Part shown: positions 5,451 through 53,919 of the stretch, one piece after another | How positions within the stretch are numbered: position 1 is the first letter of the stretch | Layout: every line of letters begins with the position of its first letter | Source of the DNA: Nemertoderma westbladi | Taxonomy: Eukaryota > Animalia > Xenacoelomorpha | Direction: 5' to 3' | Length of the DNA: 64,000 nucleotides | Assembly: GCA_032718475.1 (NCBI GenBank) | Contig: JAUCBJ010008823.1 | Span: 19,828-83,827, forward strand | The notes under the pieces: generated by a model | Told to the model about the DNA's origin: nothing | The model's input: the letters and a program-made list of their open reading frames with translations, nothing else | Database searches by the model: none | Made by a program: the position numbers and the translations under genes

Positions 5451-6182
5451 AGCAACATGTTGAGTGAAAATATAAAAGTAGGGAATTTCAATTTAGTGAT
5501 GAAAAACTTATTGGTGCAAACTGAGAAAATGGATTTTACATACAGAAGAGAGACATGAAATTCAGCCATAAATACTGTTGTTCATGTTTATTCAAATAAG
5601 ATGTGCATTTTTGGTCTCTGCTGTTCTTATCCCTTTGGTAATTGTTTTAATTTTTCATATTAATTAATGAAAATATTGTAAATTGCCAAAAATTTTCCAA
5701 AAAGGTTTTAAAAATTTGAATAATTTTTTATATATAGAAAAAGTAAATATAAATTTTTTAAAAATTTCCAATTTCAAAAGTATTGTATTCTTTTGAAAAA
5801 GCATTCGATATTGAAACTTATCTCACAACATGGAAGTCCGTTATCAATTTTCAAAAATTTCACTTATTGAATGTTTTTTGAGATAAAAGTTTTTTTTCAC
5901 ATAAGGAGATTATCGCAAATCCATCTCGGCAAATTAATTATGTTAATTTTCAATTAGGGGAAAGCCGCAGATTACTATAGTACGATATTCTAACCAAAAC
6001 CAAAAAATGTAATATATCATCTTACAGAGTTTCATTTTTGAGAGTAATCAGATGTTATTTACATAGATTTTCGACTGCAGATGGATGTATGATTGTGTCG
6101 AAAATCCCCATCACAGCACAGCTATCTTTAAAATAAATCATTTATTAATAATTTACCAATTTATTGCTGATTATTTATTTAG

Positions 6183-6541
6183 ATTCAGTTTGGATCCTCC
6201 GTCTATTAAGACAAAAGGCTACCGACAGTGGCTGGACGCCTTACGGGCGATGGCTCGGTTACCCCACGGTCTACCCGGCCAATGGAGGAAGACCATATGG
6301 TTGAAGTTAGCTGAGAGTCACATAGTAGCCAGCGAGATCGACTGGCCTCGGTGTGTGCGGATCGCATTCAATGACCGGAGTAATCCAGACGACGATAAAC
6401 TTGGATCCCAAATCGTAAAAGATCTCCATCGGACTGGCTGCGCGGGTTTCTGTGAGGAAGATGATGAACAGAACAGAGCGCTACTTAAACGGGTTCTATT
6501 GGCCTACGCTAGGTGGAACAAAATCATTGGATATTGCCAAG
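6183..6541 (+). CDS. TBC1D30: TBC1D30-like Rab-GAP, internal exon A (upstream exons not located)
   Basis: Acceptor tttag at 6182. Encodes QWLDALRAMARL...QIVKDLHRTG...LKRVLLAYARWNKIIGYCQ (TBC IxxDxxR and YxQ motifs). Donor G|GTAAGT at 6541/6542. Confidence 0.85.
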
Positions 6542-18500: not shown

Positions 18501-20490
18501 GATATTGCCAAGGTAAGTGAGTTCTTTTAGTTGACGCTAGGATGTGGAAAATCATTGGATATTGCCAAGGTAAGTGAGTTCTTTTAGTTGACGCTAGGTG
18601 GAACAAAATCATTGGATATTGCCAAGGTAAGTGAGTTCTTTTAGTTGACGCTAGGTGGAACAAAATCATTGGATATTGCCAAGGTAAGAAGTGAGTTCTT
18701 TTAGTTGACGCTAGGTGGAACAAAATCATTGGATATTGCCAAGGTAAGTGAGTTCATTTAGTTGACGCTAGGTGGAACAAAATCATTGGATATTGCCAAG
18801 GAAAGTGAGTTCATTTAGTTGACGCTAGGTGGAACAAAATCATTGGATATTGCCAAGGTAAGTGAGTTCTTTTAGTTGACGCTAGGATGTGGAAAATCAT
18901 TGGATATTGCCAAGGTAAGTGAGTTCTTTTAGTTGACGCTAGGTGGAACAAAATCATTGGATATTGCCAAGGTAAGTGAGTTCTTTTAGTTGACGCTAGG
19001 TGAAACAAAATCATTGGATATTGCCAAGGTAAGTGAGTTCTTTTAGTTGACGCTAGGTGGAACAAAATCATTGGATATTGCCAAGGTAAGTGAGTTCTTT
19101 TAGTTGACGCTAGGTGAAACAAAATCATTGGATATTGCCAAGGTAAGTGAGTTCTTTTAGTTGACGCTAGGTGGAACAAAATCATTGGATATTGCCAAGG
19201 TAAGTGAGTTCTTTTAGTTGACGCTAGGTGGAACAAAATCATTGGATATTGCCAAGGTAAGTGAGTTCATTTAGTTGACGCTAGGTGGAACAAAATCATT
19301 GGATATTGCCAAGGAAAGTGAGTTCATTTAGTTGACGCTAGGTGGAACAAAATCATTGGATATTGCCAAGGTAAGTGAGTTCTTTTAGTTGACGCTAGGA
19401 TGTGGAAAATCATTGGATATTGCCAAGGTAAGTGAGTTCTTTTAGTTGACGCTAGGTGGAACAAAATCATTGGATATTGCCAAGGTAAGTGAGTTCTTTT
19501 AGTTGACGCTAGGATGTGGAAAATCATTGGATATTGCCAAGGTAAGTGAGTTCTTTTAGTTGACGCTAGGTGGAACAAAATCATTGGATATTGCCAAGGT
19601 AAGTGAGTTCTTTTAGTTGACGCTAGGTGGAACAAAATCATTGGATATTGCCAAGGTAAGTGAGTTCTTTTAGTTGACGCTAGGTGGAACAAAATCATTG
19701 GATATTGCCAAGGTAAGTGAGTTCTTTTAGTTGACGCTAGGTGGAACAAAATCATTCGATATTGCCAAGGTAAGTGAGTTCTTTTAGTTGACGCTAGGTG
19801 GAACAAAATCATTGGATATTGCCAAGGTAAGTGAGTTCTTTTATTTGACGCTAGGTGGAACAAATTCATTGGATATTGCCAAAGAAAGTGAGTTCTTTTA
19901 TTTGACGCTAGGTGGAACAAAATCATTGGATATTGCCAAGGTAAGTGAGTTCTTTTAGTTGACGCTAGGTGGAACAAAATCATTGGATATTGCCAAGGTA
20001 AGTGAGTTCTTTTAGTTGACGCTAGGTGGAACAAAATCATTGGATATTGCCAAGGTAAGTGAGTTCTTTTAGTTGACGCTAGGTGGAACAAAATCATTGG
20101 ATATTGCCAAGGTAAGTGAGTTCTTTTATTTGACGCTAGGTGGAACAAATTCATTGGATATTGCCAAAGAAAGTGAGTTCTTTTATTTGACGCTAGGTGG
20201 AACAAAATCATTGGATATTGCCAAGGTAAGTGAGTTCTTTTATTTGACGCTAGGTGGAACAAATTCATTGTATATTGCCAAAGAAAGTGAGTTCTTTTAT
20301 TTGACGCTAGGTGGAACAAAATCATTGGATATTGCCAAGGAAAGTGAGTTCTTTTAGTTGACGCTAGGTGGAACAAAATCATTGGATATTGCCAAGATAA
20401 GTGAGTTCTTTTAGTTGACGCTAGGGTGGGCAAAATCATTGGAATTGCCCAGACATTGCCGAGGCCCGAGGTAAGTAATATCTTTTAGTT
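6506..20490. repeat. 57-bp tandem array (~245 units, ~14 kb) spanning the exon A/intron junction
   Basis: Unit acgctaggtggaacaaaatcattggatattgccaaggtaagtgagttcttttagttg. The first copy lies in the exon and the last copies degenerate at ~20425-20490. Confidence 0.98.
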
Positions 20491-26000: not shown

Positions 26001-26713
26001 TAATTTAATATTGTCTTTAGCTACGTAACTCTTTCTCCTACTATAGGGAATCTTATAGTATATTATTATGTCACTAAAAAAAATAATTTAATCACATTAT
26101 TAATTTATGAAATTTACATACTATTTAATTTAATTAATTAAATCACCAAATTAATTATTCATGTATTTATAATTTTTATTATGTGGCGTAAAGGTATGGA
26201 ATATGTATAATGTCCTAGCGGTGCCCCCCCCCCCCCCCGCCCCCCATCTATTGATTTTTATTTCACAATTACAGTAGAAATTAATATTTACAGTATTTAC
26301 TAAAAATTTAAAATTAATAGGCTGAAAAATTTCACTCATGGCTAATTATTATAACGAAGGATTTAAATTTAAAACTATTGAAAGACAAACGTAGATGTTA
26401 AAAAAATTAATAAAATATGTAATAAATAATATATTTATATTAAAAATACAGTTCCCGCTTCTTTATTTCCTGCTGATGCTAACGAGACGTTACTTTCTTT
26501 AAACTTCAAAGGTACAAATTTCCAGTCTTTAGTTCCCGCATCCGTTATTTAACATTTTAATTTCAACTTGGATCGTTTATGATTAAGAAATATATTAACC
26601 TCGGTTAGACAAGGTAGCATTTATATTATTTGGTTTTGCAGTAAAGTCTTCAAGGAATGAGGATTAAGCAACGGCGTTTCATTGTTTATAAATATCCTTC
26701 TTTTGATTGAGTA

Positions 26714-28639
26714 TATTTGAAGAGACAGTAACAATACCTGCAATATCTTACTGTAAAGTTTGTGAATCAAATCATAAATCCGACCTTCTCACCAAAACAG
26801 TAAACTCCAAGTAAGCGACTATATTGCAGTATCGATCTCTTATAACCGGTGAGGCAGAAAACAGTCTACGAGCAGACAAACTTCGATAAAACAAAATCCC
26901 GCGCAGCGAATCCTAAAATCAGGCTGACTCACTGACGGACTAAGAGGCTCGTATACTTTGCCGCGGTGTGATTTATATGGTTGGGCAAAAGAGACGCTAG
27001 CTAGGTGCAGAGATTTGGAGATGTCTAACTAGCGGGCAAAGCGCAGTACGGACAAAAGTTAAATTTTATATATTTTGAGGTGTAAATAATTTCTAACGCG
27101 CGCGTGTGTTAATTCTAAACGGTCAAAGCAGTTTTGCTCCTTCATATATATAATTACTGGGTACGGTGTGCATTTTACAAATATTCTAATTTTGTAACTT
27201 GTAGGTCCAATACTCACGAATGATAAGGCTCCTTCCCCTCTTGCGTATTTCCAGGACTCAAATTCAGGCATAAGGTTAATGCTACGCCCAGAATTCGGCA
27301 ATTTTAATTTACCAGGCCCCTAATACTAAGAAGAAATGTGTTAGTTTACTACAGTAGGCGTACTGTTACTAATAGCTAGCCTGGCGTCCTATCTAGAATT
27401 TTGGTTACCTAGGTGGGCTTGGTAACTTCCTATCAGGACGTTGGCGGGGACACGGTAGATGTTAGTATATCCCTAATAGCCTCAATTTATTTGCGCCTAG
27501 TCGTAAACTGCCCTACCGCCTGAACGGTACAATCCCAATTCAGGTGAAACACAGCAACCCTCCTGGCCTACAAGTTCTAATGCAATGGACACCGTTGTAC
27601 TACAAATAGTCGCAAACGCACCTGTACTTAGCAAGAGTTAGGCGTACAGTTTGCTGCACCCTACCAATGTGTATGCTTTGTACCGGTGTGCCTACGTCCT
27701 ATCTGCGTACTAGTATCTCTGCCTGCTCTCCCCCCCCCCGTAGGAATATGAAGGTCTACTGCGGTTTTTTCCTGAATTAAAACGGTACAGTCCCTAAGAT
27801 GTAATTTTAGGCTTACAGCGTGTCACTACTTCTACCTTTGATCTTTGGTCTTACGCTTAGGTAGCAAGGCATCGAACGCTGTCTAACCTTTCAGGCGATG
27901 GGCGAATAACTAAGATGGTATTGCGGGTTGTCTCCTGTCTACATTCCCTTGATGTTCCCGTTCATTGCTGCGGCCCGATCTCTAGCCGGCCATCCTGTTC
28001 CTAAGTGTGTTCACCGTAGTGAATCATGGTGAAAAGAAAATGCAGGTAGCGGTATTTCTGAATTTATTGCAGATAATAATACAAAATGTAATCTGAAAAC
28101 TAATGACAGAATAAACAAATATCAGATAACTCAGAATAATTGTGTAAGTGAAGAGTTAAGATTGAGAGATTGAGAAGTTGAGAGATTGATAACTAATGAA
28201 CGAATCGCACCTTTATATAGCAAATTTGTGCTGCAATCAATCGAGAAAATTCTCGATTGTTCTATAGGTTCTAACAGGTTTTTAAAGATAGCTATTGGTC
28301 CAGCTAATATATAACTTGCACGACATTGGTTACAATCTAATAACTGCAGTCTCATTGGTTAATCTAGGTACAGACAAATACAATTTAATTTGTAGCGGTC
28401 AATTTAAATGAGTTGAAATTCTGTACAAAATATAATTCGCACTTACTAGGATTCGAACTCAATACACACTACATATAATTTCCAACGCTCTACCGACTGA
28501 GCTACTGAACCACTTGAACAATAGGCGTACAAATAGATATAGTAAATACAAATGAGGACTTAATGTAATCTTTAATAAAGTTAATTCGAATAAAATAAAA
28601 TTTTGAAAATCCACGGCATTTAGGGAATATAATTCTATA
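26714..28639 (-). repeat. 3' LTR (1926 bp)
   Basis: Direct repeat of 46833-48756. By eye it differs by about 2 substitutions and 3 indels (1 bp, 5 bp in a C-run, 8 bp). Confidence 0.95.
28446..28511 (-). ncRNA. tRNA-derived A-box/B-box cassette in the 3' LTR
   Basis: GGTTCAGTAGCTCAGTCGGTAGAGC...GAGTTCGAATCC. The D and T arms are tRNA-like but there is no acceptor stem. Confidence 0.6.
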
Positions 28640-28646
28640 CCACTCC
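28640..28646 (-). other. Candidate short polypurine tract
   Basis: GGAGTGG immediately upstream (element sense) of the 3' LTR. Confidence 0.4.
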
Positions 28647-29370
28647 ATGAAAACAGGATATTATCGTGCATAAAATATACGGTTTTCACCAATAATCAAT
28701 CAAACTATAGAATACTTAGGGCGTACTTACGTATTTACAAATTAAATTTCAAACAATACTTCCTTTCTACATAATGATTCGATACAAAAATAATTACAAA
28801 TTCAAACTTTACATATTTGAGGCTTTACTAAGTAAGTACAATATAAATCTAAATTAAATTCACCAATATAAATCTATTGCATCTCAATATTGCATAAATT
28901 CAAATAATTACAAATACTTTCGTGCCTAAATGTAGATTGCATAAGTTCGGAATAATTACAAATATGAGTCTTTCTAAGCACAAAACTTTCTAACTATAAA
29001 ACTTTCTAAATACAAAATATAACACTTTACAAATGAAACTATAAGAAAGGCCCACGAGTCTTCCATCTACTCTTACTTTCTATTTCACTGTAAATACAAA
29101 TACTGCTTATAAGATATAAATTGCATAGTATTCGGAACAATATAAATTGCATAAGTTCGGAATAATCACAAATATAAAATAATAATCTTGCAAAATATAA
29201 ATTCTTACTAAATATAAGTCTTACTAAATATAAATCTTACTAAATATAAATCTTACTAAATATGAGTTTTCCAGAATACAAAACTTACTAAATATAAAAC
29301 ATATAATTCAAATAAATCACAAATTCACAAGAAAGGCTCACGAGTCTTCCGTCCACCCTTGCCCTCCCTT

Positions 29371-30148: not shown

Positions 30149-31520
30149 TATGGTGGCCGACTGCTGCCACATAAACCATCAATGTCTAATAAAAATAATC
30201 GGTTAAAAAATCAATAAAAAAATTCAATAAAAAAAATTTCAATAAAAAATTTCAATAAAAAATTAAATAAAAAAAATTTCAATAAAAAAAATTAAAAAAA
30301 AATTCAATAAAAAAAATTCAATAAAAAAATTCAATAAAAAAAAATTCAATAAAAAAAATTACAAAAAAATTCAATAAAAAAATTCAATAAAATAAATTCA
30401 ATAAAAAAATATGTTAAATTTTTTTCTGAAACCCACCGTGGCCTACAGCTGCCAGGTATTCATTTAATACTAACCACTGCAGTTATATTATACTGTATAG
30501 GTGGCAGTACTCGGCCACAGCGAAATAGAAAAAAAAATTGCAAAGTAAAATTGAATTCACACGTGGCCGACTGCTGCCAAATACTTTCAAACACATGGAA
30601 ACATGGCCTACAGCTGCCAAAATGTGTATTTCCTGCAGTATCATTAACTAACATACTGTTTTGCTGTACCGGTAGGCTTCCAGTATCCTGTAGTTCGAGA
30701 TTAGTTTCAGTATTCCGGTACTGAAATTCAAGCTACGAGCCTACATCAGTAGGCCTACATACAAATCTTGTAGGTACAATGCGGCAGCAGTGATCAGGCC
30801 CGGGACGGTAGGTAATTTAAGGGTTTCTGCTAATAATGGCATGGAATAGTGATTATGGTTTAAAATCATTTCTCAGTGAAGCTGTTGCGCAAAATTGGTC
30901 TAGAAAAGAGTTGCTGCCTGCAGCAAAATCTAAATTTGGTCAGTATCCTTGGTCAATGAGAAGTTTGGATCGGCGTCTGAAGTTTTTTGAAATCAGTTAC
31001 ATCAATTATAATGTTGATATTCAAACTATTCGCAAGGCTTTAAAGAAGGAGATGGAGGGTCCTGGAAAACATTTAGGATATAGAGCCATGAATTTGAAGC
31101 TTCGCACTGTTTACAATATATGTGTTCCTCGTGATATTGTATATGAAATAATGAGAGAAGAGTACCCGGATGTGCTGGAAAAACGACGACTAGAAAACCG
31201 TAAACGGGTCCGCACTGGAGCTTTCAATTCAAAGGGCAGAAGGGTCCTTTGTGGTTAGTATCCGGGGATGGGCACGATAAATTGTGCGGTTATCAGAACT
31301 CAACATTCAGCTACTGTATTTATGGTTTCCAAGATTCGTATTCAAGAAAATTATTACTGCTGAGAGTTATGAAGTCAAACTCCTGTCCTAAGGTTATTTC
31401 GCGACTGTATATTGAATTGATTACTACTTTGCAGTATTGCATGCCTGTTTTTCTTCGATTTGATAAAGGGACTGAAACAACAACAATGGCGATAATGCAT
31501 TCTTATTTGCATTCGATAAG
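30149..31520 (+). mobile_element. Truncated IS3EU-like DNA transposon nested in the LTR element
   Basis: Begins TATGG at 30149 with ggcc(g/t)ac(t/a)gctgcca subterminal repeats. Frameshifted transposase in ORFs 30836-31258 and 31249 onward (LGYRAMNLKL; DGHDKL...IYGFQDSYSRK...LRFDKGTE). No right TIR found. Confidence 0.65.
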
Positions 31521-32288
31521 TAGTAGGAGAAGCATAGCCCTCGGCCAACTCCTCCCTAGCCTGGGCTACGGGCCACATCTCAGAGGGCTATTAAAAATGC
31601 CAAATTTCGGTGCTAAATTGCGGTGTTTAATGACCATCTGTCACCAACAGTATTGATGCCTTCAACCAATCGCTGCGTATCACCTACGCGTAGCCTAACC
31701 TCACGATGCCTACCTTACTCGACAACTGTTACCACTCGCGAGTATTGATTCGCGTCGTTGCATCAACCAACCATCGCATATTCATCTTCGCGTACCCAAA
31801 CTTCTCATCGCATGGCTAGCCCCCACTATGCTATTATATCGAATCGATTACCAACTCACCACGGCTACTCTTCGACGGCTGTCACCAAACCAACCAACCG
31901 AGCGGCCTACCAGTCCAGCAGTAGGATACGTGTTGAAATTCCGCCACGTTTCCGGCTACACGTATACGAACATTTCCATAGTTATTTCCTATCCATGCAA
32001 CCAACCACTGTATACTGTATATGCAGACAACGTGGCCACCAACTACACGCATCACGCATATATTATATTGATTGCCAACTCCACAACTGCTGTCGCCAAA
32101 TCAACCAACCAAGCAGTATGATACATGAGATTCCATCACGTTCTAGCTACGTGTATACGAGCATTAGTGATTATTACGCAATAATTTTTTTTGTTTATAC
32201 AGTAGTTACCCACCAGCTAATCAACCAATCAATAAACCGAATTTAGGCTATTTTCCAGTTTAAGACCTGTATTATTTTTGAAAATATC

Positions 32289-35915: not shown

Positions 35916-38900
35916 TTATTTACTAATATTAGTTGGAGATTTGTAGTCTCCAGACTCGTTACGAGTCTCTTCAAGAAGTACGAGACGTTGAGTCGGTCTG
36001 TCTACTGTACGACCGTCAATTGTCCGTACCGTTACATTTCTTGTCACTCCATCCATAGATGGATGTGTGTCTAAAATTACACCTGTTATCCAGAAGCGTC
36101 TTTTTAGATTCACTTCTGCTAACAGCACGTGATCTCCCGGCTTTAATGCGCGGGTGTTATTGTACCAGTTTGTTCTGGCAGAAATAGAGGGCAAATAATG
36201 GTTTTGCCATATTTCCCAGAATTTGTTAGCTAGTAGTTGCGTGATTTTCCACGCTTTTCTACCGTAGCTATCGCCTTCCATTGGAATAGAAATAGGCGTC
36301 AAAGTTGTCGGTGCCTGCATAAGCAGGTGTGCCGGTGTCAAAGCAAACTGAGATTGTTTGTCATCGGGTACTAATACTATTGGTCTAGTATTTAGTATTG
36401 CCTCGATTTCAACAAACAGTGTTGTCAGTTGGTCGTCTGTCAATATGTGGTTTACTGGAATGACCTTTGCCATTGCCGTTTTGATAGATCTAATCAATCT
36501 CTCCCAGACTCCGCCTCTCCATGGACTATCTGGAGGATTAAACTTCCAAACAATCTTGTAAGGATGTAGTTCGTTTGAGATTTGATCATGATCTAATTTC
36601 TTAAAGGCTCTAGCAATCTCATTTCGAGCACCAACAAAGTTTGTCCCTTGGTCTGAGTACAAGCACTTCACTAGTCCGCGTCTAGCGATAAATCGCCGCA
36701 ATGCTAGTATAAACGCGTTGGTGGAAAGATCCATCACACGTTCAATATGAACTGCCCTACTGGACATACATGTGAAAATCAGTCCCCAGCGTTTTACTAG
36801 TATACGTCCACGTTTCGTATGTATGGGACCAAAGCAATCAATTCCAGTCTCTGTAAAAGGTGGTCTGAATGCTTGAAGTCGTGCTTGTGGAAGTTCACTC
36901 ATTTCTTGGGTACCTATTCTAGAATGTACCTTTTTACAAATAATACACGTACGTGTCACTGAACTTAACGCTTTACTGGGTCTAATTAATACAAATCTTG
37001 TACGTAAGTAGGAAAGACAGTGGTGTCTTCCAGCGTGTTTCAGATGTAAATGTGCGTCCAGTATCATTGCACGTTGTAGTTCGTGATGCTGTGGTATTAT
37101 TATTGGGTATCTAAAGTTTGTGTTAAAGTCAATGTTTTGAAGCCGAGATTTATGACAAATTAAGCCATTATAAATAATCGGACTCCAACTCAGTATTGGT
37201 GACGACTTGATTGGTTGACCTTGATTTATAGATGTGAATTCGCGCGCGAAATATCGCAGTTGGTAATGGCGAATTAATTTAATTTCACACCTGTCAATCT
37301 CAGCCAATGTAAGCCGACGTGTAAAGTCTCGTTTGCCTTTAACGTATTGTACAAAACGTACAATCCACGCTAATTTTCGGCAAGCGTTTGTCCAAGAGTC
37401 TGTTAAGTTTACAATACGGTCGACGTGAGTATTTGTGACGTCATCAGGTAAGTCAATGGAGAATTTGGAAGGTTTTGATTTACTAGAAGGGCCCACGGGT
37501 CCGCCGGTAAGTATTCCCTTGTTGACTGTTGATCCGTCCGGGTCTACAAGTAATTTGTCCTTCTTCGTCTTCTTACCTTGGTTGTCAGTACTTTGTAAGT
37601 CGATCGTTAATGGTGGTTTGAACTCTATGGGGTCAGTGGGTTTCGGTAAACTTATTTTTCTGCCGATATTAATCCCGGGTCTCACCATAGGTTGCAAGTT
37701 TGGTATGTCTCTTGAGCGCAAAGTAACACCTGTATTTACAATAGCGTAGGTACTACCCACATCTGTAATACATGAGGTTTCACCGTGCTTATGGTTGCTC
37801 AAGTGTGTCAAAATTGGTAGTTTGTCAATACAAGGCCGCTCCAATAGGGAAACTGCGGCTTTACTATTTGTCAATATGTTACTAGTGTCTGGTAGAACAT
37901 TTTGTGACATGTCTGGTAAAATGTTTCGCGGAACATCCGGCGAAATATCTAGTGATGTGTCTGGCAAAACGTCTGGTTGACCGTCTAGTAACGTATCTGG
38001 TTGTTTGTCAATAGAAGGCCGCTCCAATAGAGAAACTGCGGCTTTACTATTTGTCAGTATGTCACTAGTGTCTGGTAGAACATTTTGTGACATGTCTGGC
38101 AAAATGTCTGGTTGAACGTCTGGTAATGTGTCTGTTTGACCGTCTGGCGATATGTCTGGTGTAGAAAGGCTCGTAAGTCTTCCGTTCTTGACCTTTGAAG
38201 TTATCGCTTTCCATTTCGCCTTCGGTTTTTTCTTGAGTTTAGCCGCCGTCCTTTTCTTTGCTTTCCCTTTCTTTGGTTTTTTAATTTCCGCGTCTTTAGG
38301 GATATTGTTAGACTTGTTGTCGTATAGTGGCGGCCAATGTTGTATTGATCCCTGCAAGAACCGTGGTCCGTGCTGCCAAAATTCTTTGTTCTCCGGTTTA
38401 CAGAATTCCTCAGGCATCATTCCTCGCGACGCAATATCGGCTGGGTTTTGTGGTCCGGGACAATGTCGCCAATCTTCTTTTATTGAACGGTCTAGAATTT
38501 CCGCGCGACGGTTAGCTACGAATGTCTTGAATTCAAGTATGTCGTTGTTTATGTAAAATAAAACCAACGTCGCGTCAGTCCAATAAAATATCTGTAAACT
38601 TGACTGTAGTTCTGTCTGTATAAGGTTCACAATTGTGGTTGACAGGGTTGCGGCTTGTAGCTCAGCTCGTGGTGTCGTCATATACTTAGTAGGCATTGTT
38701 TTTGCCTTAGAAGTAATGAGCGAAACATCGAATTCTTCTGAGTCTACTTGTCTGCGCAAGTACGCTGCCACACCAAAGCCGTTGTCACTGGCGTCGGAAA
38801 AACAATGTAATTCCAAGTTGTCAGGAAATGTTGTTTGTAATGGAAAGTATACTCTGGGTATGGAATAATCCTCTAACGAAGATAATTCTGCCTCCCAGGT

Positions 38901-41900: not shown

Positions 41901-43343
41901 TATCACTGACCTGGCCATGCTGACTGTACCTCCGTAGATCGAAGTTAAACGATCGTACGCTAGTTCGAAGGCGTCCGGTACACCAATGAAGGTCTCCGCC
42001 AAACGTTTAGGTTCTCCCGACAACGTTTGAAGCAGGTAATTAAACTTCTCCCGTGATGTAAAGGCGCACACGGCGATCTGAGATTCGATATAGTCTACGA
42101 AAGTGTGCCAGTGTTTTGAGCTACCGGAAAACTTAGGTGGTTGTTGCACCGGTAGTCCTTGTCTAGCTGCGAATTTCGCTATTTCCTCGGCAACGTTCAG
42201 AGTTTCACGTCCTTGGTTGGTAATCTGGTTGATGTCCCTTCTTGGCGCTTTTCCCTGATACGAAGTATTGGTCGATGGTATTTGTCTTTGCAGAACCTTT
42301 GGGTTTCTATTGTGTTCGAATTCGGAATTTCTCGAACTGTCGGTGTGAACTTCCTCCAAGCGTTCCTCGATCTGGGCCAACTTGTTGACAACTGGTCGCA
42401 GAATGTCGGCAAACTGTTGTGAACTGATTGCGTCCGTTGGTTGTAACGCCTTCTGTGTTGGTGTATTTTGTGGAGGATTGTCTACAAAGGAGTTATCTGA
42501 ACGCTCGCGTTTATATTCATCGGCCGCCCCTGTTCTAAATACCTCGCGTTTCGGGTAATCCGATTCGCTCGAAGTACTACTATCATCTGGATATGGTGGT
42601 CGACGTGCTCGCGTCCATTGCGTCGTACGAATTCTAACGTTTCGTTTCGGAACATCGTCCACTGTTCTCCGTTGTTCGGTAGGCTCACAAGTCTTCCTCG
42701 AAGTCGTAGATTGCGATGTAAACTGGTTGAACGGTCGCTTATCCACTGGTCTCCGTTGTTCGGTAGGCTCACAAGTCTTCCTCGAAGTCGTAGATTGCGA
42801 TGTAAACTGGTTGAACGGTCGCGTATCCACTAGTCTCCGTTGTTCGGTAGGCTCACAAGTCTTCCTCGAAGTCGTAGATTGCGATGTAAACTGGTTGAAC
42901 GGTCGCGTATCCACTGGTCTCCGTTGTTCGGTAGGCTCACAAGTCTTCCTCGAAGTCGTAGATTGCGATGTAAACTGGTTGAACGGTGGTCGGACAACAG
43001 CGTTTGAATCCAAAGGCCTTGTAGGCCTAAACGTCATTGGGTACGTGTAGTGCGTAACGAGTTTTGGTGTCGAAGGTGGACTCACCTGTTTTGTCGTCAG
43101 TAGTGCAGGTCCAGTCAACAAACTACTACGATCTGTAATCGGTGGGTTACTTACCTTGACTTTCAAAATAGGCGACGACGTTGCTCTTGAATTTGTCCGG
43201 AATAACCAACCTGTGTTCCATCGCACCATGGATAGGAGAAATATCACTACTACCCGCAATCGAAACAGGTTCCTTAGTTGTAACTGGTGCGAACATAGGG
43301 GTTCACTTGTGTCTTTCTGGGCTCCTCCCCGAGGCGCACCCAC
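35916..43343 (-). CDS. BEL/Pao Gag-Pol polyprotein (2475 aa; true start uncertain)
   Basis: DUF1759-like Gag (PPKFSG...EKFNYL), triple zinc knuckle, protease ILDSAS, RT (LPHH, DVEAMFHQV, FYVDD), RNase H (FSDAS, PRAEL, NPAD), integrase HHCC and core (DCFGP, SDQGTNF, GGVWER). Confidence 0.95.
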   Translation of the reverse strand: MGAPRGGAQKDTSEPLCSHQLQLRNLFRLRVVVIFLLSMVRWNTGWLFRTNSRATSSPILKVKVSNPPITDRSSLLTGPALLTTKQVSPPSTPKLVTHYTYPMTFRPTRPLDSNAVVRPPFNQFTSQSTTSRKTCEPTEQRRPVDTRPFNQFTSQSTTSRKTCEPTEQRRLVDTRPFNQFTSQSTTSRKTCEPTEQRRPVDKRPFNQFTSQSTTSRKTCEPTEQRRTVDDVPKRNVRIRTTQWTRARRPPYPDDSSTSSESDYPKREVFRTGAADEYKRERSDNSFVDNPPQNTPTQKALQPTDAISSQQFADILRPVVNKLAQIEERLEEVHTDSSRNSEFEHNRNPKVLQRQIPSTNTSYQGKAPRRDINQITNQGRETLNVAEEIAKFAARQGLPVQQPPKFSGSSKHWHTFVDYIESQIAVCAFTSREKFNYLLQTLSGEPKRLAETFIGVPDAFELAYDRLTSIYGGTVSMARSVIEELCKGGAITKPVDLLKLADEIKNAITTLRSIGQLDYGNTPTVLLKIIGRLHHRLRREWRKIEYQREERGGFLKLEDVYLLISREAVVETRSNYTDQHIIAEGITLPSSNRQKPQTTSTKTATYATLTETRQFSDGSRVSAPIGIKQTRQQLSTDFSSCQYCEHLGKRYIGHKLRGCRQFRELNSEERRLQIRPLDSCWRCTRHGHVRKDCPNTDTCPSCGRNHDGLLHTDSHTPTKRFAREHPEAAAKCNTAYKNRESKMTPTFVTHIKDCFSEQSGSSDEESEDDDVYSDGDEQPSIALLTTDQLKGFSVIPIKITGTKGSKRIYAILDSASSHSYVDEQIADVVTDLRQGKRVSYTVSSMHGQRAIPVTRVKLNLDTLLPKSQHSEKERSLLPFKDLTFAATKDFSNLLGPVPEQSLEDRKYFRHLGVPECPVNYRSVAMLIGTDQFNLHQVWETRPSAVVAGNAYACRTPIGWYTRAPVRTLDISDEEDDVQSTCSLLTTNSIHSFSHDVDHTTLHLTKHDRCVTSMISHKEQLINQVSLELGEKTSQPEIPSTTDDNAGRLASLPTPITSTIPVDIDDDALRNHQVEQAALDKELTEKTIRWLEQDTAEPGSYEPCMSEQEKQSLKIMEDTIRQTKDGHYEVGMLWRSQSPKLINNYPLALRRLHSIRQRLLKDEKAHLQYNTQMETYLSKGYAIRMTNPEIVTDQTYYLPHHFVRHPDKPDKVRVVNDCAALFEGMSLNSELMDGPNMNNYLMGVIMRFRQRQVAFTCDVEAMFHQVRALERDRDSLRFLWYPEGDLSLPPATYQMQVRVFGARDSPNCTMYALKQAARDQKHMYDPEIIKIVERDFYVDDGLQSCDTVERAITVAHQLRDCLAGGGFNLTKFASNSAELVDSFGTTERGGGDIDLEFEPLPTTKVLGLFWDPNTDNFRVKVRLDSQENTLTKRSCLSKLSRLFDPLGFISPIILQARIYMRSIWKDGLTWDEPISSDQVDLWKTWEAELSSLEDYSIPRVYFPLQTTFPDNLELHCFSDASDNGFGVAAYLRRQVDSEEFDVSLITSKAKTMPTKYMTTPRAELQAATLSTTIVNLIQTELQSSLQIFYWTDATLVLFYINNDILEFKTFVANRRAEILDRSIKEDWRHCPGPQNPADIASRGMMPEEFCKPENKEFWQHGPRFLQGSIQHWPPLYDNKSNNIPKDAEIKKPKKGKAKKRTAAKLKKKPKAKWKAITSKVKNGRLTSLSTPDISPDGQTDTLPDVQPDILPDMSQNVLPDTSDILTNSKAAVSLLERPSIDKQPDTLLDGQPDVLPDTSLDISPDVPRNILPDMSQNVLPDTSNILTNSKAAVSLLERPCIDKLPILTHLSNHKHGETSCITDVGSTYAIVNTGVTLRSRDIPNLQPMVRPGINIGRKISLPKPTDPIEFKPPLTIDLQSTDNQGKKTKKDKLLVDPDGSTVNKGILTGGPVGPSSKSKPSKFSIDLPDDVTNTHVDRIVNLTDSWTNACRKLAWIVRFVQYVKGKRDFTRRLTLAEIDRCEIKLIRHYQLRYFAREFTSINQGQPIKSSPILSWSPIIYNGLICHKSRLQNIDFNTNFRYPIIIPQHHELQRAMILDAHLHLKHAGRHHCLSYLRTRFVLIRPSKALSSVTRTCIICKKVHSRIGTQEMSELPQARLQAFRPPFTETGIDCFGPIHTKRGRILVKRWGLIFTCMSSRAVHIERVMDLSTNAFILALRRFIARRGLVKCLYSDQGTNFVGARNEIARAFKKLDHDQISNELHPYKIVWKFNPPDSPWRGGVWERLIRSIKTAMAKVIPVNHILTDDQLTTLFVEIEAILNTRPIVLVPDDKQSQFALTPAHLLMQAPTTLTPISIPMEGDSYGRKAWKITQLLANKFWEIWQNHYLPSISARTNWYNNTRALKPGDHVLLAEVNLKRRFWITGVILDTHPSMDGVTRNVTVRTIDGRTVDRPTQRLVLLEETRNESGDYKSPTNISK
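42655..42985. repeat. 84-bp in-frame tandem repeat (4 copies) near the Gag-Pol N-terminus
   Basis: FNQFTSQSTTSRKTCEPTEQRRPVDTRP; period 84 (42721, 42805, 42889, 42973). Confidence 0.95.
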
Positions 43344-44503: not shown

Positions 44504-46023
44504 CTATAGAGACCTCACCTCTTTAGGTACTTGAGGGAATCTTTGACATAAGTCTTTAACTAATTGTCGTTCCCGTCCAGGTGCTCCTATCGAACCTTCC
44601 TTCATTCGTTCCTGGATTTGGCGGTGCCTTACCTCTATCTGGTCCAAATCATGTCCGTCACGAGATCTCATCGATCGATCGCGGGCTAGAAGATCCAGAT
44701 TTTCCTTGGCTTCGGCTAATTCTCTCGCCTTCTTCTCAAGTTCGAAACGAAGTTTAACTTCCTTTTCTCGTTGTTCCGTTTGTTGTTGTTGCGCCTCGAA
44801 CTCCGCTTGTCGTATAGCTGATTGAGCTTTTATTTGCCGTGTCTTCATCTCGACTCTGGCTTCTGAAACTAACCTTTTTCTTTCTACTCTGCCACTGCCG
44901 TTTGTCGCTCTAACTTGGCTGCTGCCGTTTGTCGCTCTAACTCGGCCGCTGCCGCTGCCGTTTGTCGCTCTAACTCGGCTGCTGCCGTTCGTTGCGCTAA
45001 CTCGGCTGCCTCCGCTTGTTGGGCAATGTCCAACTCTAACCTTTCCATTTCGGCTGCTTCGAGTTCGGCTTGTTCCTGCAGATGAGAGATTCTCGCTACA
45101 TTCGCAACACGTATTTTCTCTTCCTCCACCGCTGCTTGTATCATTAGCAGTTGAGTTTGTTCTTCCATTTCGTGTTGCTGTCTGTAGAACTGTTGCTGTT
45201 GTCGAGCAACTTCTGACGTGACCATACTTCCCTCGCCAATTTCGCTACGAATACTTACCAACGATTGATCCAGTATTCCCGGTGCCGATTCGATTCGTAC
45301 GGGTGAAGTTTCCCTCGTATATTCCGGCACGGTTTCCAAATCGCCGAAGTCTTCGCCGCACATACGTAAGTGGTCCGTCAGATGTTTCAATTGTCCATCT
45401 AGCCTATACAGTTCCTGTTCTTCCTCGGGTTGTAATAATTTGTCCGAAACTGACTCACCTAACAACTGGTCTGCTTGTTCCTGTTGTATCTGTCTAATCG
45501 TCGACTTAAACTGAATCAGTTTCTCTCTAGCGATGATTAGTTTCTCGAGGATTCTGAGTTGTGTGTCCATATCCTGTCTCTGTCTAGCTAGATCTTGTAG
45601 ACCAATTAGGTTATCCACGGACTTATGTACTTTACTTTGTATTCTAACCTGGAGGGTGTAGAACTCGAATCGAGACATCGGAGCGGTCAACTCGTCTAAT
45701 ATGCGATGGCCTTCCCCAATACTCCTGGTAATATGCGCCATGTATCCTCCAACGCTTCTAACCACACTCTCCTGGCTTCCTACTGAACTTACCATGTCCG
45801 TTTCCCTGTATCTAGGTTGCGGAACAGTTAGAAAGTCCTCGGTCCTGCCGTCGCCTCGTACTACGGCATCCGGTACTCCCGTTGGATGTACTGGTGACGC
45901 ACACGGTGTAGGTTCGGTAGGCTCGCGAGTCTTCCCCTGTAGTTCTTCCGCTGCTGACTTATCCGCGTCACATGAGTCATAGTCGGTAGGTGTATTCTTC
46001 GTATAGTCTTGTTTGTCACTCAT
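44504..46023 (-). CDS. Upstream coiled-coil ORF of the LTR element (~506 aa, split by a 1-nt frameshift near 44885)
   Basis: E/Q/A-rich heptads. GAG-TA-GAA in place of the neighbouring repeat pattern GAG-TTA-GAG; restoring one T joins the 379-aa and 114-aa ORFs (ELERKRLVSEARVEMKTRQ). Confidence 0.7.
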
Positions 46024-46821
46024 TTCGGTAGTTGTAAGTCAAGTAAAATGTGAGTGTCAAAGTATCGAATTTACCGTATTTATATCTAAACGGTACTAAT
46101 TACAGTCATATAAAATTAGCCTACCGGCCGATTTTATAGCAGATGGATAAAATTAGCCTATGCGGCCAATTTTACAGCAAATAAATGTCATGGTATAAGT
46201 ATATAATAAAATTAGCCTAGCGGCCAATTTTATAACAAATAAATCGGATAACGATATGCGTTATCAAAAGGTAAATTAAATACAATAATACGGACTAATT
46301 CAGCAATGAACAAAGAAATCATACGGAATGCATAAATACTTGAGACAGTGGAACCCACAATAATTTTAACTAATACGGTAATGCCTAACTTATTTATGCA
46401 ACTTTTCGAACTCACCCACTCCAATAATTCTCCAGAAAAACAGATTCCCAGATACAAACCAGACGTGAACCTTTCCGTTTTCAGCGTTGCGGACGAAGCG
46501 CGATTTTCTCAACCAAAGTTGTTGGGTTATCTATCTCCCAAACTTGCTAAACACGGTCTTGCTCCCGTTACAGTCTAGAAATGAGTTCTGAATCCTGAAA
46601 AACAAAAGAGTTAGGTTTTACTTTACGAAAATTTTGTACCGGTACAATATGGTATTTAAACCCTTTTAAACACCGGTATTCAATTCCAAAAAATTTTACA
46701 CGCGGTTCAAATCAAATTTTATTTCAAAAAATTAGCACTTAGCTAATCAAATATAAACTTTTACCTCAAAATACAAAATTTTCAAATAACTTTAGTCCTA
46801 CCGAACCGTAGTTCAGTAAAA

Positions 46822-46832
46822 CATATTCCTAC
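46822..46832 (-). other. PBS-position sequence GTAGGAATATG (non-tRNA type)
   Basis: Abuts the 5' LTR end, has no TGG, and is the exact complement of an 11-mer inside both LTRs (47865-47875, 27740-27750). Confidence 0.6.
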
Positions 46833-48309
46833 TATTTGAAGAGACAGTAACAATACCTGCAATATCTTACTGTAAAGTTTGTGAATCAAATCATAAATCC
46901 GACCTTCTCACCAAAACAGTAAACTCCAAGTAAGCGAATATATTGCAGTATCGATCTCTTATAACCGGTGAGGCAGAAAACAGTCTACGAGCAGACAAAC
47001 TTCGATAAAACAAAATCCCGCGCAGCGAATCCTAAAATCAGGCTGACTCACTGACGGACTAAGAGGCTCGTATACTTTGCCGCGGTGTGATTTATATGGT
47101 TGGGCAAAAGAGACGCTAGCTAGGTGCAGAGATTTGGAGATGTCTAACTAGCGGGCAAAGCGCAGTACGGACAAAAGTTAAATTTTATATATTTTGAGGT
47201 GTAAATAATTTCTAACGCGCGCGTGTGTTAATTCTAAACGGTCAAAGCAGTTTTGCTCCTTCATATATATAATTACTGGGTACGGTGTGCATTTTACAAA
47301 TATTCTAATTTTGTAACTTGTAGGTCCAATACTCACGAATGATAAGGCTCCTTCCCCCTCTTGCGTATTTCCAGGACTCAAATTCAGGCATAAGGTTAAT
47401 GCTACGCCCAGAATTCGGCAATTTTAATTTACCAGGCCCCTAATACTAAGAAGAAATGTGTTAGTTTACTACAGTAGGCGTACTGTTACTAATAGCTAGC
47501 CTGGCGTCCTATCTAGAATTTTGGTTACCTAGGTGGGCTTGGTAACTTCCTATCAGGACGTTGGCGGGGACACGGTAGATGTTAGTATATCCCTAATAGC
47601 CTCAATTTATTTGCGCCTAGTCGTAAACTGCCCTACCGCCTGAACGGTACAATCCCAATTCAGGTGAAACACAGCAACCCTCCTGGCCTACAAGTTCTAA
47701 TGCAATGGACACCGTTGTACTACAAATAGTCGCAAACGCACCTGTACTTAGCAAGAGTTAGGCGTACAGTTTGCTGCACCCTACCAATGTGTATGCTTTG
47801 TACCGGTGTGCCTACGTCCTATCTGCGTACTAGTATCTCTGCCTGCTCTCCCCCCCCCCCCCCCGTAGGAATATGAAGGTCTACTGCGGTTTTTTCCTGA
47901 ATTAAAATGGTACAGTCCCTAAGATGTAATTTTAGGCTTACAGCGTGTCACTACTTCTACCTTTGATCTTTGGTCTTACGCTTAGGTAGCAAGGCATCGA
48001 ACGCTGTCTAACCTTTCAGGCGATGGGCGAATAACTAAGATGGTATTGCGGGTTGTCTCCTGTCTACATTCCCTTGATGTTCCCGTTCATTGCTGCGGCC
48101 CGATCTCTAGCCGGCCATCCTGTTCCTAAGTGTGTTCACCGTAGTGAATCATGGTGAAAAGAAAATGCAGGTAGCGGTATTTATTGCAGATAATAATACA
48201 AAATGTAATCTGAAAACTAATGACAGAATAAACAAATATCAGATAACTCAGAATAATTGTGTAAGTGAAGAGTTAAGATTGAGAGATTGAGAAGTTGAGA
48301 GATTGATAA

Positions 48310-48480
48310 CTAATGAACGAATCGCACCTTTATATAGCAAATTTGTGCTGCAATCAATCGAGAAAATTCTCGATTGTTCTATAGGTTCTAACAGGTTTTT
48401 AAAGATAGCTATTGGTCCAGCTAATATATAACTTGCACGACATTGGTTACAATCTAATAACTGCAGTCTCATTGGTTAAT
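48310..48480 (-). promoter_or_regulatory. Putative LTR promoter
   Basis: Minus-strand CCAAT at ~48471, 48442 and 48411, TATATAAA at 48329-48336, and an Inr-like TCATTAGTT about 20 nt downstream. Confidence 0.5.
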
Positions 48481-48562
48481 CTAGGTACAGACAAATACAA
48501 TTTAATTTGTAGCGGTCAATTTAAATGAGTTGAAATTCTGTACAAAATATAATTCGCACTTA

Positions 48563-48628
48563 CTAGGATTCGAACTCAATACACACTACATATAATTTCC
48601 AACGCTCTACCGACTGAGCTACTGAACC
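48563..48628 (-). ncRNA. tRNA-derived A-box/B-box cassette in the 5' LTR
   Basis: Same sequence as 28446-28511. Confidence 0.6.
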
Positions 48629-48814
48629 ACTTGAACAATAGGCGTACAAATAGATATAGTAAATACAAATGAGGACTTAATGTAATCTTTAATAAAGTTA
48701 ATTCGAATAAAATAAAATTTTGAAAATCCACGGCATTTAGGGAATATAATTCTATAGAGTATGATTAATTGGTTTAAAAATTTACTGGAGACAGTGTGTA
48801 ATAAATAAAATAGG

Positions 48815-51402: not shown

Positions 51403-53667
51403 TTAAGAATTCATGCTGGAACGTGATTCTCCCGTATTGAGGGTTGTTCTTGATGTTGTGTCGTATTTTCGTTTGCGTAGACTGTTGGACATACCATGGA
51501 CATTTAACGACATGCGCCGAGCTTCCGCGTTACAAAGCTTTTTTATATCGCCACTGAGAACACAATTACCAATACATATCCAAACGCCTTGGAAACAGTT
51601 TAAGAATATAAATATATAAGTGATGATTGGCATTGAAGATGAATCTGGTATAAACCGAATCACCCATGGTACACCCAACATTAAAAGTACCAGAGCTGAA
51701 CTGCGAATTTGCCATAATAATTGTTGCCTATTGGGCAATCCCTTAGCTTGCGATCTTCTCTTGTTTGCGATTCGATTTAATTGTCTTGCGATAAATATAA
51801 AGATTATAGAATTACCAATAGTAACCAAAGCCATCGGAATGACAATAAAAATATAGTAGACATAAGTATTTGTCTTTATCCAACATAAATTGATATCTTT
51901 TTCAACGTTGATGTAGTTATTCTTGTCCATAAGAATAACTATTGAACACATTAGCAATGGTAATCCCCAGGCAATACTCATGCATTTGGCTATATAGTAC
52001 TTAATCTGTACTGGAATAATTTTTATGAAAGATAAGTACATATGAAAACCTTCAATAGCCATCCATTGCCACGCCACCAGTAGGAAATAGTGGTTTAGAA
52101 ACCCAAGGATTTGACACCAAGTTTTATTGTATTTCGGATCAATTTCATTGATCAAAAAACAAATGTTGAACAGGAGAAGACTTATCGAAAAGTTGATGTG
52201 AATTTTTCCAAGATTTTCTTCTTTTTTGAAGTATATAAGAGTGGTTATATAAATAATCAGCCCAATAGAAGATAGACAAACTCCAATTATGGATAAGATG
52301 CGAATAGCGAGGTAATGCTGAGTTGCATTTGTTGCTGTGCCATATATATCCATTAGTATTGCAAAATTTGTCATGTGATTGCAAACACATGTTGTTTTGT
52401 CATTTTCTGTCACCTTGAGGTAGCAACCATCCGTTTTCCACTTTCTATCAGTTTCATTCCAGTATACGCATCTTGGGTTTACATAGGTCTTATTAATGTG
52501 TCTTAACTTATAAGTCAGTTTCCACGCATGAGGAATATCTGTTTTCTTAGCATCTGTATTTAATGATATAATATGTGAGTTAATAGCGCTTTTTGAACCA
52601 ATATGTTCAATTTCTTTATCAAAAAAAAGAGTTGTGTAAAAATATAATGCCATACCCTTTGTGAACAATGTTTCATTTCGGGAATTATTATTTGATTTCC
52701 TTTTTACCTGGATTTCAACAGGAATTATAGTTTTTTCATTTTCCATGATAAAAAAGTCTTTATATATTTCTGTAGCAGATAATCTATCTGTTCGTATGAC
52801 AATGTTATCTGAAACTATAATTCTTGAAGTTTCCCCATCGGTACTTAGGGATAATTTCTCAACGGTTTCCGTAAAGTTTATAGCAAAGTCATAAATTTCA
52901 GTTTTGCTAAAATCCCTGGCTGCAAAGTTGCTACAAACGTCTAACAAGTTGTCAGCTACATCGTGTGATGTGTTCCTCTCGTGTAGATTTCTCATAACCT
53001 TTTCAACTGTAATCGCGGTGTAGAATATTTCAGTTTTAGTGAATTTGCCATTCATTGACTTTGTAATATTATGCAGTTGCGATGCTGTTTCCTTAGAATT
53101 ATTTTCATCGACAATTGATTCTGAAATGTTTTGTAACAATTCTGTGGAATTGCTCAACCTTTGACAAGACGTTATGTAATCAGCTGACTCCCAAATCGCA
53201 TCCTCCCCACATTTCCGCGACACCTTCTTTCCTTCTGGTATGGTACATTGATTTGTACCAGATTGCCCTACAGGCACAGAAATCCATGAATATATTCCAT
53301 ATGGAGTTACTTCCCTTTCTTCTTTGCAACAGGAGATCTCGCAATGTTGTGTCTCATTATCAAATACTTTACCTTCTTCGCACGAACTTACATTGATTTT
53401 GCAAACCCCTCCTAAACCATCATCGGATGAGTTTAAATGTATACATGTTAAATATTGTTGACTACAAATTGTTGCATTATCCATCCTCTTAGGAAACCCA
53501 ATGCTGACACAGAACCCACAGGATGGACTATCATTACATTTACAGGTAGTTTCCTCCATCTGCTGCGATCTCTCATTTTCATTGAGATTAGCATAGCTTT
53601 GGCCAAATAATGCAGTCAAGTGCACATCTAGTGTGAAATATATATAAATAAAATTCTTCAACTTCAT
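51403..53667 (-). CDS. Intronless adhesion GPCR (HRM-GAIN/GPS-7TM), 754 aa
   Basis: Hydrophobic N-terminus, Cys-rich ectodomain, GPS motif CVYWN...WKTDGC...CVCNHM|TNFAILM, and seven TM helices with family-B motifs (HINFS, HYFLL...WMAIEG, WGLP, CWI, NCFQG). Confidence 0.92.
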   Translation of the reverse strand: MKLKNFIYIYFTLDVHLTALFGQSYANLNENERSQQMEETTCKCNDSPSCGFCVSIGFPKRMDNATICSQQYLTCIHLNSSDDGLGGVCKINVSSCEEGKVFDNETQHCEISCCKEEREVTPYGIYSWISVPVGQSGTNQCTIPEGKKVSRKCGEDAIWESADYITSCQRLSNSTELLQNISESIVDENNSKETASQLHNITKSMNGKFTKTEIFYTAITVEKVMRNLHERNTSHDVADNLLDVCSNFAARDFSKTEIYDFAINFTETVEKLSLSTDGETSRIIVSDNIVIRTDRLSATEIYKDFFIMENEKTIIPVEIQVKRKSNNNSRNETLFTKGMALYFYTTLFFDKEIEHIGSKSAINSHIISLNTDAKKTDIPHAWKLTYKLRHINKTYVNPRCVYWNETDRKWKTDGCYLKVTENDKTTCVCNHMTNFAILMDIYGTATNATQHYLAIRILSIIGVCLSSIGLIIYITTLIYFKKEENLGKIHINFSISLLLFNICFLINEIDPKYNKTWCQILGFLNHYFLLVAWQWMAIEGFHMYLSFIKIIPVQIKYYIAKCMSIAWGLPLLMCSIVILMDKNNYINVEKDINLCWIKTNTYVYYIFIVIPMALVTIGNSIIFIFIARQLNRIANKRRSQAKGLPNRQQLLWQIRSSALVLLMLGVPWVIRFIPDSSSMPIITYIFIFLNCFQGVWICIGNCVLSGDIKKLCNAEARRMSLNVHGMSNSLRKRKYDTTSRTTLNTGESRSSMNS

Positions 53668-53919
53668 TGTTTTAACACTAATAATATTCGTTTTTGGTTT
53701 ATCAAACTTACTCAGCTAGTAATTGTTTATCCATGCACACTTTTTACTTATGACGAAATCATGATTTCATTCATCATCCATCTTCACTAATCACTAAAAA
53801 GGTCGATCAATTTACACTAAATATATTAATTAATTAATAGTATTACTATAAATTTATAATTTACACTAAATACAATAATTCATATTATTATTATAATAAA
53901 TTAATTCAGTATAATAATG

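Follow-up and report, generated by a model that had tools for sequence, protein, structure and literature searches.

According to published accounts of the Schizosaccharomyces pombe LTR retrotransposon Tf1, the primer of reverse transcription is the first 11 nt of its own RNA and a three-duplex "pretzel" is required (bioRxiv 2022.12.06.519325), with RNase H cleaving after base 11 to make the primer (PMC7175516). Tf1 and Tf2 of S. pombe, Tj1, Tosmo, and the Tf1/sushi Ty3/gypsy chromoviruses are described, in the passages on priming, as having no tRNA PBS; the site that takes its place is complementary to 11 nt of the LTR (PMC7175516, PMC4600332). Self-priming has also been predicted from PBS-LTR complementarity for the Tcn1 chromoviruses and the plant TAR (Houba/Osr-1) copia elements, which belong to other superfamilies and hosts, and splice involvement goes unmentioned in the corresponding passages (PMC6317226). 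For BEL/Pao elements, the ICTV outline of Belpaoviridae describes genomes of 4.2–10 kb with LTRs of 0.2–1.2 kb and a PBS of 18 nt to which the 3′ end of tRNA-Arg or tRNA-Gly binds, and calls replication poorly understood (PMC8742986). Full-text literature searches, with subscription journals, Repbase, GyDB, and supplements outside their scope, returned no report of self-priming for BEL/Pao, and term look-up in three BEL/Pao papers (PMC554778, PMC3118150, PMC6238403) returned no passage on a PBS or a tRNA.

Here, we analyzed a 64,000-nt stretch of Nemertoderma westbladi DNA (the window), whose minus strand carries a 22,043-bp BEL/Pao element with a self-pairing site at its 5′ end (Table 1). A Pfam scan of the 2490-aa frame revealed DUF1759, Peptidase_A17, an integrase zinc-binding domain, and DUF5641, and the order PR-RT-RH-IN together with Peptidase_A17, DUF1759, and DUF5641 is that of the BEL/Pao Pol type. 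The RT-RNase H part is 39–44% identical to the best 120 of 1227 homologues, all 120 of which contain PF05380; among the matches listed, the named nearest homologues come from marine invertebrates (corals, a mussel, echinoderms, and a jellyfish). Domain content and RT-RNase H homologues therefore place the element in BEL/Pao. The catalytic motifs of gag-pol were assigned by eye against what we take to be their consensus, as were the D-E-D motifs of the RNase H region, which is open, and the Sinbad/Sailor lineage is presumably a lead for placement within BEL/Pao. In-frame tandem repeats lengthen the gag-pol frame at 42658–42987 (84-bp unit) and 37815–38123 (183-bp duplication).

The two LTRs, the target-site duplication, and the polypurine tract (short and weak) expected of a BEL/Pao element are all present. 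Contigs of other copies diverge from the window sequence at 48756 and 46833, which confirms the LTR ends. The LTRs differ from each other by 2 substitutions and 3 indels (99.17% identity), and the element is evidently young. Their termini are TAT...ATA rather than TG...CA; three relatives (L005, L037, and L076) likewise end in TATA, with TA instead of CA, whereas only the window element also starts with TA. Compared with the Belpaoviridae as outlined by the ICTV, the element shares the gag-pol domain order, the Pfam families, LTRs, a 5-bp target duplication, and the position of the polypurine tract, but it has no tRNA PBS, its 1.92-kb LTRs have TA ends, and at 22 kb it is about twice the size given and carries extra frames (PMC8742986). 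Both the genome (22,043 bp) and the LTR (1.92 kb) thus lie outside the ICTV size ranges, and the tRNA-Arg/tRNA-Gly PBS of that outline, which is absent here, is a descriptive rather than a phylogenetic character, so that filing under BEL/Pao rests on Pol.

Among the extra frames, those upstream of gag-pol, which are coiled-coil-like, had no Pfam match. The 800-aa frame after pol likewise belongs to no Pfam family, and a homologue search limited to proteins of 436–1388 aa gave nothing at E ≤ 0.001; several orphan frames lie downstream of pol. Antisense within the element, at 30821–31656 on the (+) strand, a frameshifted piece has a weak rva_4 integrase-core match (E 1.2e-5, just below the cut-off), which suggests a captured or nested fragment. 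Elsewhere in the window, positions 6067–20484 hold an array of ~245 copies of a 57-bp unit (~99% alike) with long minus-strand open frames, and positions 51403–53715 (−) hold an unbroken 770-aa adhesion-GPCR-like frame (GPS, 7tm_2).

Table 1. Features of the BEL/Pao element and its flanks, in window coordinates
Feature	Position	Strand	Remarks
Target-site duplication TACTC, 5′ side	48757..48761	(−)	
5′ LTR, 1924 bp	48756–46833	(−)	Repeat comparison; contigs of other copies break at each end
tRNA-like A-box/B-box motifs in LTR	48566..48628	(−)	Consensus as we take it to be; matching place in 3′ LTR
TATA-like box (48336) and initiator-like TTAGTT (48313)	48308..48336	(−)	Motif match only
AATAAA	48180..48185	(−)	Upstream of primer
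GT..AG intron, 1418 nt	46595..48012	(−)	One contig joint in run X4
Candidate self-primer CATATTCCTAC, LTR positions 882–892	47865..47875	(−)	In 5′ LTR; cut after 47865 predicted
G run, 15 nt (10 nt in 3′ LTR)	47850..47864	(−)	Opens purine tract
AATAAA, candidate poly(A) signal	47606..47611	(−)	254 nt downstream of primer, the side where relatives show a hexamer
Non-tRNA PBS GTAGGAATATG, 11 nt	46822..46832	(−)	Adjoins LTR end, zero spacer
Hairpin, 11 bp, cUACGg (UUCG-type) loop	46796..46821	(−)	Directly after PBS
Upstream coiled-coil-like frames, ATG at 46023	44504..46038	(−)	Two reading frames; stops and ~1.1 kb before gag-pol
gag-pol open frame, 2490 aa	35916..43388	(−)	DUF1759, zinc knuckles, protease, RT (YVDD), Peptidase_A17/RNase H, integrase, DUF5641
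Extra frame after pol, 800 aa	32289..34691	(−)	C-terminal CCHC-like knuckles
Polypurine tract, short and weak	28640..28649	(−)	Directly before 3′ LTR
3′ LTR, 1926 bp	28639–26714	(−)	Repeat comparison
Second copy of the 11-mer, 3′ LTR	27740..27750	(−)	
Target-site duplication TACTC, 3′ side	26709..26713	(−)	

A preliminary description of this DNA had reported that the 11 nt after the 5′ LTR lack the TGG of a tRNA PBS and are the exact complement of an 11-mer in both LTRs. We verified both points: no TGG-type PBS follows the 5′ LTR, the 11 nt at 46832–46822 abut it without a spacer, and their complement is found at 47875–47865 and 27750–27740 and nowhere else in the window, with pairing ending at 11 nt. 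PBS-LTR complementarity of ~11 nt, a feature of the Tf1/sushi group, is thus found in the window element. From composition, the chance of an 11-nt match is 6.5e-4, and only 1 of 5000 dinucleotide shuffles matched at offset 0; an equivalent LTR partner exists for 16 of 18,182 internal 11-mers. That the match is nonetheless fortuitous, and the family primes by an unrelated route, strikes us as very improbable. A 1.9-kb LTR is long, 24 of 5000 shuffles match at any offset from 0 to 5, and the window element is distant from the relatives tested, but the match sits at offset 0 and in the GT/AC register of the relatives (see below), and nowhere in the 22-kb element does the PBS find a stronger duplex partner than the LTR site (−15.5 versus −10.3 kcal/mol for the next).

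To compare the PBS with the LTR in relatives, an RT-region alignment with 25 homologues was used to fetch 80 metagenome loci (35–46% RT identity), and each PBS (offsets 0–5) was scored against each LTR, either contiguously or across predicted GT..AG introns. The first set comprised 10 loci with the LTR end set by both repeat copies (the end of L037 was shifted one base by eye, and the 3′ LTR of L029 stops at the contig end). With Watson-Crick pairs only, 8 of the 10 match their own LTR exactly at 10–12 nt, 3 contiguously and 5 across a junction, with L029 and L040 belonging to one family; L074 has an 11-nt self-match with one G-U pair, and L019, which has a TGG PBS, a self-match of only 4 nt. 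Swapped PBS-LTR pairs from the same set reached a maximum of 8 nt (0/108 at 9 or more), and the swap control is weaker if one G-U pair is allowed (4/108 reach 10–11 nt). The co-variation of the PBS and the LTR 11-mer that the preliminary description had proposed to look for among relatives was therefore found, with 8/10 exact matches against 0/108 swaps above 8 nt.

A second set of 10 further loci, chosen post hoc and with the LTR end picked by eye, gave matches of 10–14 nt in 8, the others being a TGG type (L045) and a truncated LTR (L002), and 4/408 swaps reached 10 nt or more. Self-matches of 11, 16, and 12 nt were found in L079, L023, and L060, respectively, in a later post hoc scan; assignment of L079 to the TGG type was dropped once its 11-nt junction match was found (it is mislabeled in the RT tree). 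L080 showed no self-match at offsets 0–5; by eye, it has a 12-nt match six bases past a plausible LTR end, which was excluded from the count. Altogether, 24 of the 80 loci were scored, the remainder being without a usable LTR boundary or outside the scoring (L026 gave no LTR start), and a search of viral contigs found no relatives.

There are 16 self-complementary families with differing PBS letters, and their register is nearly invariant: pairing opens with GT in all self-matching families except L076 (AGT) and L036 (AT), and primers end in AC in all but two, with the window element following both rules. Since the PBS letters differ, each PBS matches its own LTR, and the register is fixed, a host set of tRNAs could hardly produce the pattern. 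The comparative case for self-priming across a broad BEL/Pao lineage is, on these alignments, strong, and the co-variation supports the earlier proposal that the element would prime from its own transcript; that it does so in one form or another we consider very probable. In its manner of priming, the element appears to be a counterpart of the Tf1/sushi group without being a member of it, as Tf1/sushi is a different superfamily and the Pfam scan of the window element gave BEL/Pao Pol domains and no chromodomain.

The pairing could instead be structural, serving packaging, dimerization, or hiding of the PBS, with a host tRNA fragment or small RNA as the real primer. In the ICTV outline, belpaovirids are tRNA primed (PMC8742986), half-tRNA primers are described for copia lineages (PMC6317226), and sequence variants of the window element tolerate loss of distal pairs. 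One such variant, at LTR position 47873 (A>G on the (+) strand; 36,612 of 228,374 depth, 16%; 28 contigs, run X2), weakens pairing by disrupting the ninth base pair, counted from the primer 3′ end, and none of the 40 of 70 variant rows displayed contains a compensating change at 46824. Contigs that diverge after nine PBS letters, at 46824, number 6 in X2 and 2 in X4; they continue into sequence resembling the LTR 3′ end, either a leader variant or a nested junction. Both the 47873 variant and the nine-letter divergence keep the eight 3′-terminal pairs intact. Against a host primer, the 16 families have different PBS letters that each fit their own LTR and not the others, the fixed AC-3′/GT register, 0–5 nt away from the LTR end, has the geometry expected of a primer, and a whole series of host RNAs would have to be invoked. 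We therefore regard a host primer as improbable.

A primer encoded by the element in tRNA form was considered as well. The LTR holds motifs that we take to be an A-box and a B-box (48566–48628), but neither ARAGORN nor Rfam called anything, this region included, and the fold is not significant (z −1.2); the candidate was rejected because a PBS that opens with GT does not allow pairing with a CCA end. A T4 tract follows the boxes at about 48548, and X4 contig depth peaks over 48295–48611; boxes and T4 are possibly a SINE head or a Pol III promoter in the LTR.

Where in the RNA the primer lies is indicated by the relatives and by one contig. Primers that span a predicted GT..AG junction are internal and cannot be 5′ ends; the LTR introns of the relatives are themselves predictions. 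A splice-made primer was rejected for the window element, in which no junction interrupts the 11-mer and the closest AG acceptors upstream of it end at distances of 6, 9, and 22 nt. In run X4, a contig joins 48013 to 46594. The donor lies in the LTR, 137 nt upstream of the 11-mer, and the acceptor past the PBS, both in textbook splice context, and removal of this GT..AG intron deletes the primer, the 3′ part of the LTR, and the PBS. The joint is a single contig, in which the shorter arm measures 25 nt; the run is labeled "DNA?", and the joint is absent in runs X1, X2, X3, X5, and X6. All runs are contigs, whose depth was not taken as evidence of expression. At 1% share, T>C changes outnumbered A>G changes in X4 (130 versus 62), but this excess was gone at 5% share over a shorter stretch (7 versus 8). 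The spliced contig implies that some transcripts start upstream of the 11-mer, and the TATA-like box at 48336 with the initiator-like motif at 48313 forms a plausible start site that precedes the primer by about 440 nt.

These data bear on a Tf1-type arrangement, in which genomic RNA would begin with the 11-mer, from a second start at TCATATT, and the upstream start would give the spliced mRNA. The match has exactly the 11-nt length known from Tf1, and TCATATT at the 11-mer fits what we take to be the initiator consensus, also in the 47873 variant. In Tf2, according to the passage concerned, alternative start sites decide whether the primer is included (PMC5341516). No TATA motif lies near −30 of the 11-mer, however, the nearest being 471 nt upstream of the primer end; the junction-spanning primers of relatives are incompatible with 5′ ends; and the spliced X4 contig points to transcription from upstream. 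Such an arrangement is, in our judgment, unlikely. The start at TCATATT that had been put forward earlier is not needed, and for at least some transcripts the contig with the upstream donor contradicts it. Of the three primer sources then envisaged (a 5′ end, internal cleavage, and a trimmed 3′ end), internal cleavage fits best.

We favor, as the reading with somewhat more for it than against it, that the 11-nt LTR segment, internal to the transcript, serves as minus-strand primer in cis after a predicted RNase H cut at its AC-3′ end. Transcription would start upstream of 48012, probably near 48313, as the spliced contig and the motifs suggest. In unspliced RNA, the 11-mer at 47875–47865, whose complementarity to the PBS is exact, is predicted to pair with it ~1030 nt downstream; by analogy with Tf1, the RNase H of the element would then cut after C47865 and leave a free 3′-OH, from which RT would extend through the LTR as far as the cut and then transfer to the copy in the 3′ LTR. 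Splicing from 48012 to 46595, the joint seen once, would remove primer and PBS and yield an mRNA for translation only, whereas the corresponding primer of many relatives would only come together once a predicted LTR intron is spliced out. The primer thus differs from that of Tf1 in being apparently internal and ~1 kb from the PBS, with flanking duplexes not found in a crude test, and relatives would differ further in building it through predicted introns.

The jump would need poly(A) addition downstream of the primer, for example after the AATAAA at 47611. In 10 of the 15 listed self-matching relatives, an A[A/T]TAAA hexamer follows the primer at a distance of 12–94 nt, and a hexamer on this side, in relatives and window alike, is what cut-and-jump requires. 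If the AATAAA at 48185 were used, a cut in cis would separate strong-stop DNA from R, a problem for the cis model; the displayed loose contig ends included no poly(A) tail. Priming from another copy of the 11-mer, in the 3′ LTR near the RNA 3′ end or in a partner RNA, would leave the template uncut to the cap. Both LTRs carry the 11-mer, and this scheme works even with the 48185 signal if a partner RNA is the donor. The primer-PBS loop of the window element, moreover, is far longer than the 60–244 nt of relatives. But in intron-bearing relatives, copying of an uncut spliced 5′ end would lose the LTR intron in progeny, whereas the intron is retained in each of the two LTRs wherever the pair is visible, and most relatives have their poly(A) hexamer downstream of the primer, so we hold priming from another copy to be rather unlikely and retain the internal cut in cis.

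Long-range fold predictions support the primer:PBS helix weakly: its probability is ~0.43 when 1.2 kb is folded and 0 when 1.6 kb is folded from the candidate start, with a local U5-PBS hairpin as competitor, and an 8-bp U5-leader stem is present in an 81-nt fold and lost in a 141-nt fold. In a crude 30-nt test for Tf1-like flanking duplexes, the window element ranked 3/16 (U5) and 14/16 (leader) against swaps, and relatives showed no enrichment over swaps. Two further clues in the preliminary description are not general features. The G run after the 11-mer is present in both LTRs (15 and 10 nt), but it is broken by A in contigs of other copies, and none of the 15 listed self-matching relatives has a G run after the primer, the letter there being C, T, A, or one G; as relatives do without the run, its reading as a trace of strong-stop slippage was rejected. 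The hairpin after the PBS (46821–46796) folds as described (three G-U pairs; z −4.9; 0/200 shuffles), but among the 15 relatives only L054 folds equally well.

In a FastTree phylogeny of 65 of the 81 RT rows (midpoint root; L060, L062, and L074 among the rows left out), the window element forms a long branch, loosely placed beside the main self-matching group (0.935). The self-matching L054 sits, with modest support, among TGG-type families such as L019 and L045, hinting that self-matching may have been gained or lost more than once. In L037 (162–180), the PBS overlaps an ATG that apparently opens gag, and annealing of the primer would cover this likely start codon.

The model predicts a precise cut at 47865/47864, and the splice that deletes primer and PBS, resting on one contig, is a testable new detail. 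On a wider scale, we tentatively propose, as a scenario that we would not yet call probable, that a large marine-invertebrate BEL/Pao lineage swapped tRNA priming for an internal AC-3′ self-primer, with splicing building the primer in many families and, in the giant element, deleting primer and PBS and so sorting replicable genomes from translation-only messages. In the accounts available, Tf1 is the only element with demonstrated self-priming, certain gypsy and copia groups are predicted to self-prime, and the primer is in every case 5′-terminal. If our reading is true, an internal primer, in some families made by splicing, would reach the same outcome by another route and would explain many BEL/Pao elements without a recognizable PBS, and such elements may escape tRNA-fragment silencing at the PBS.
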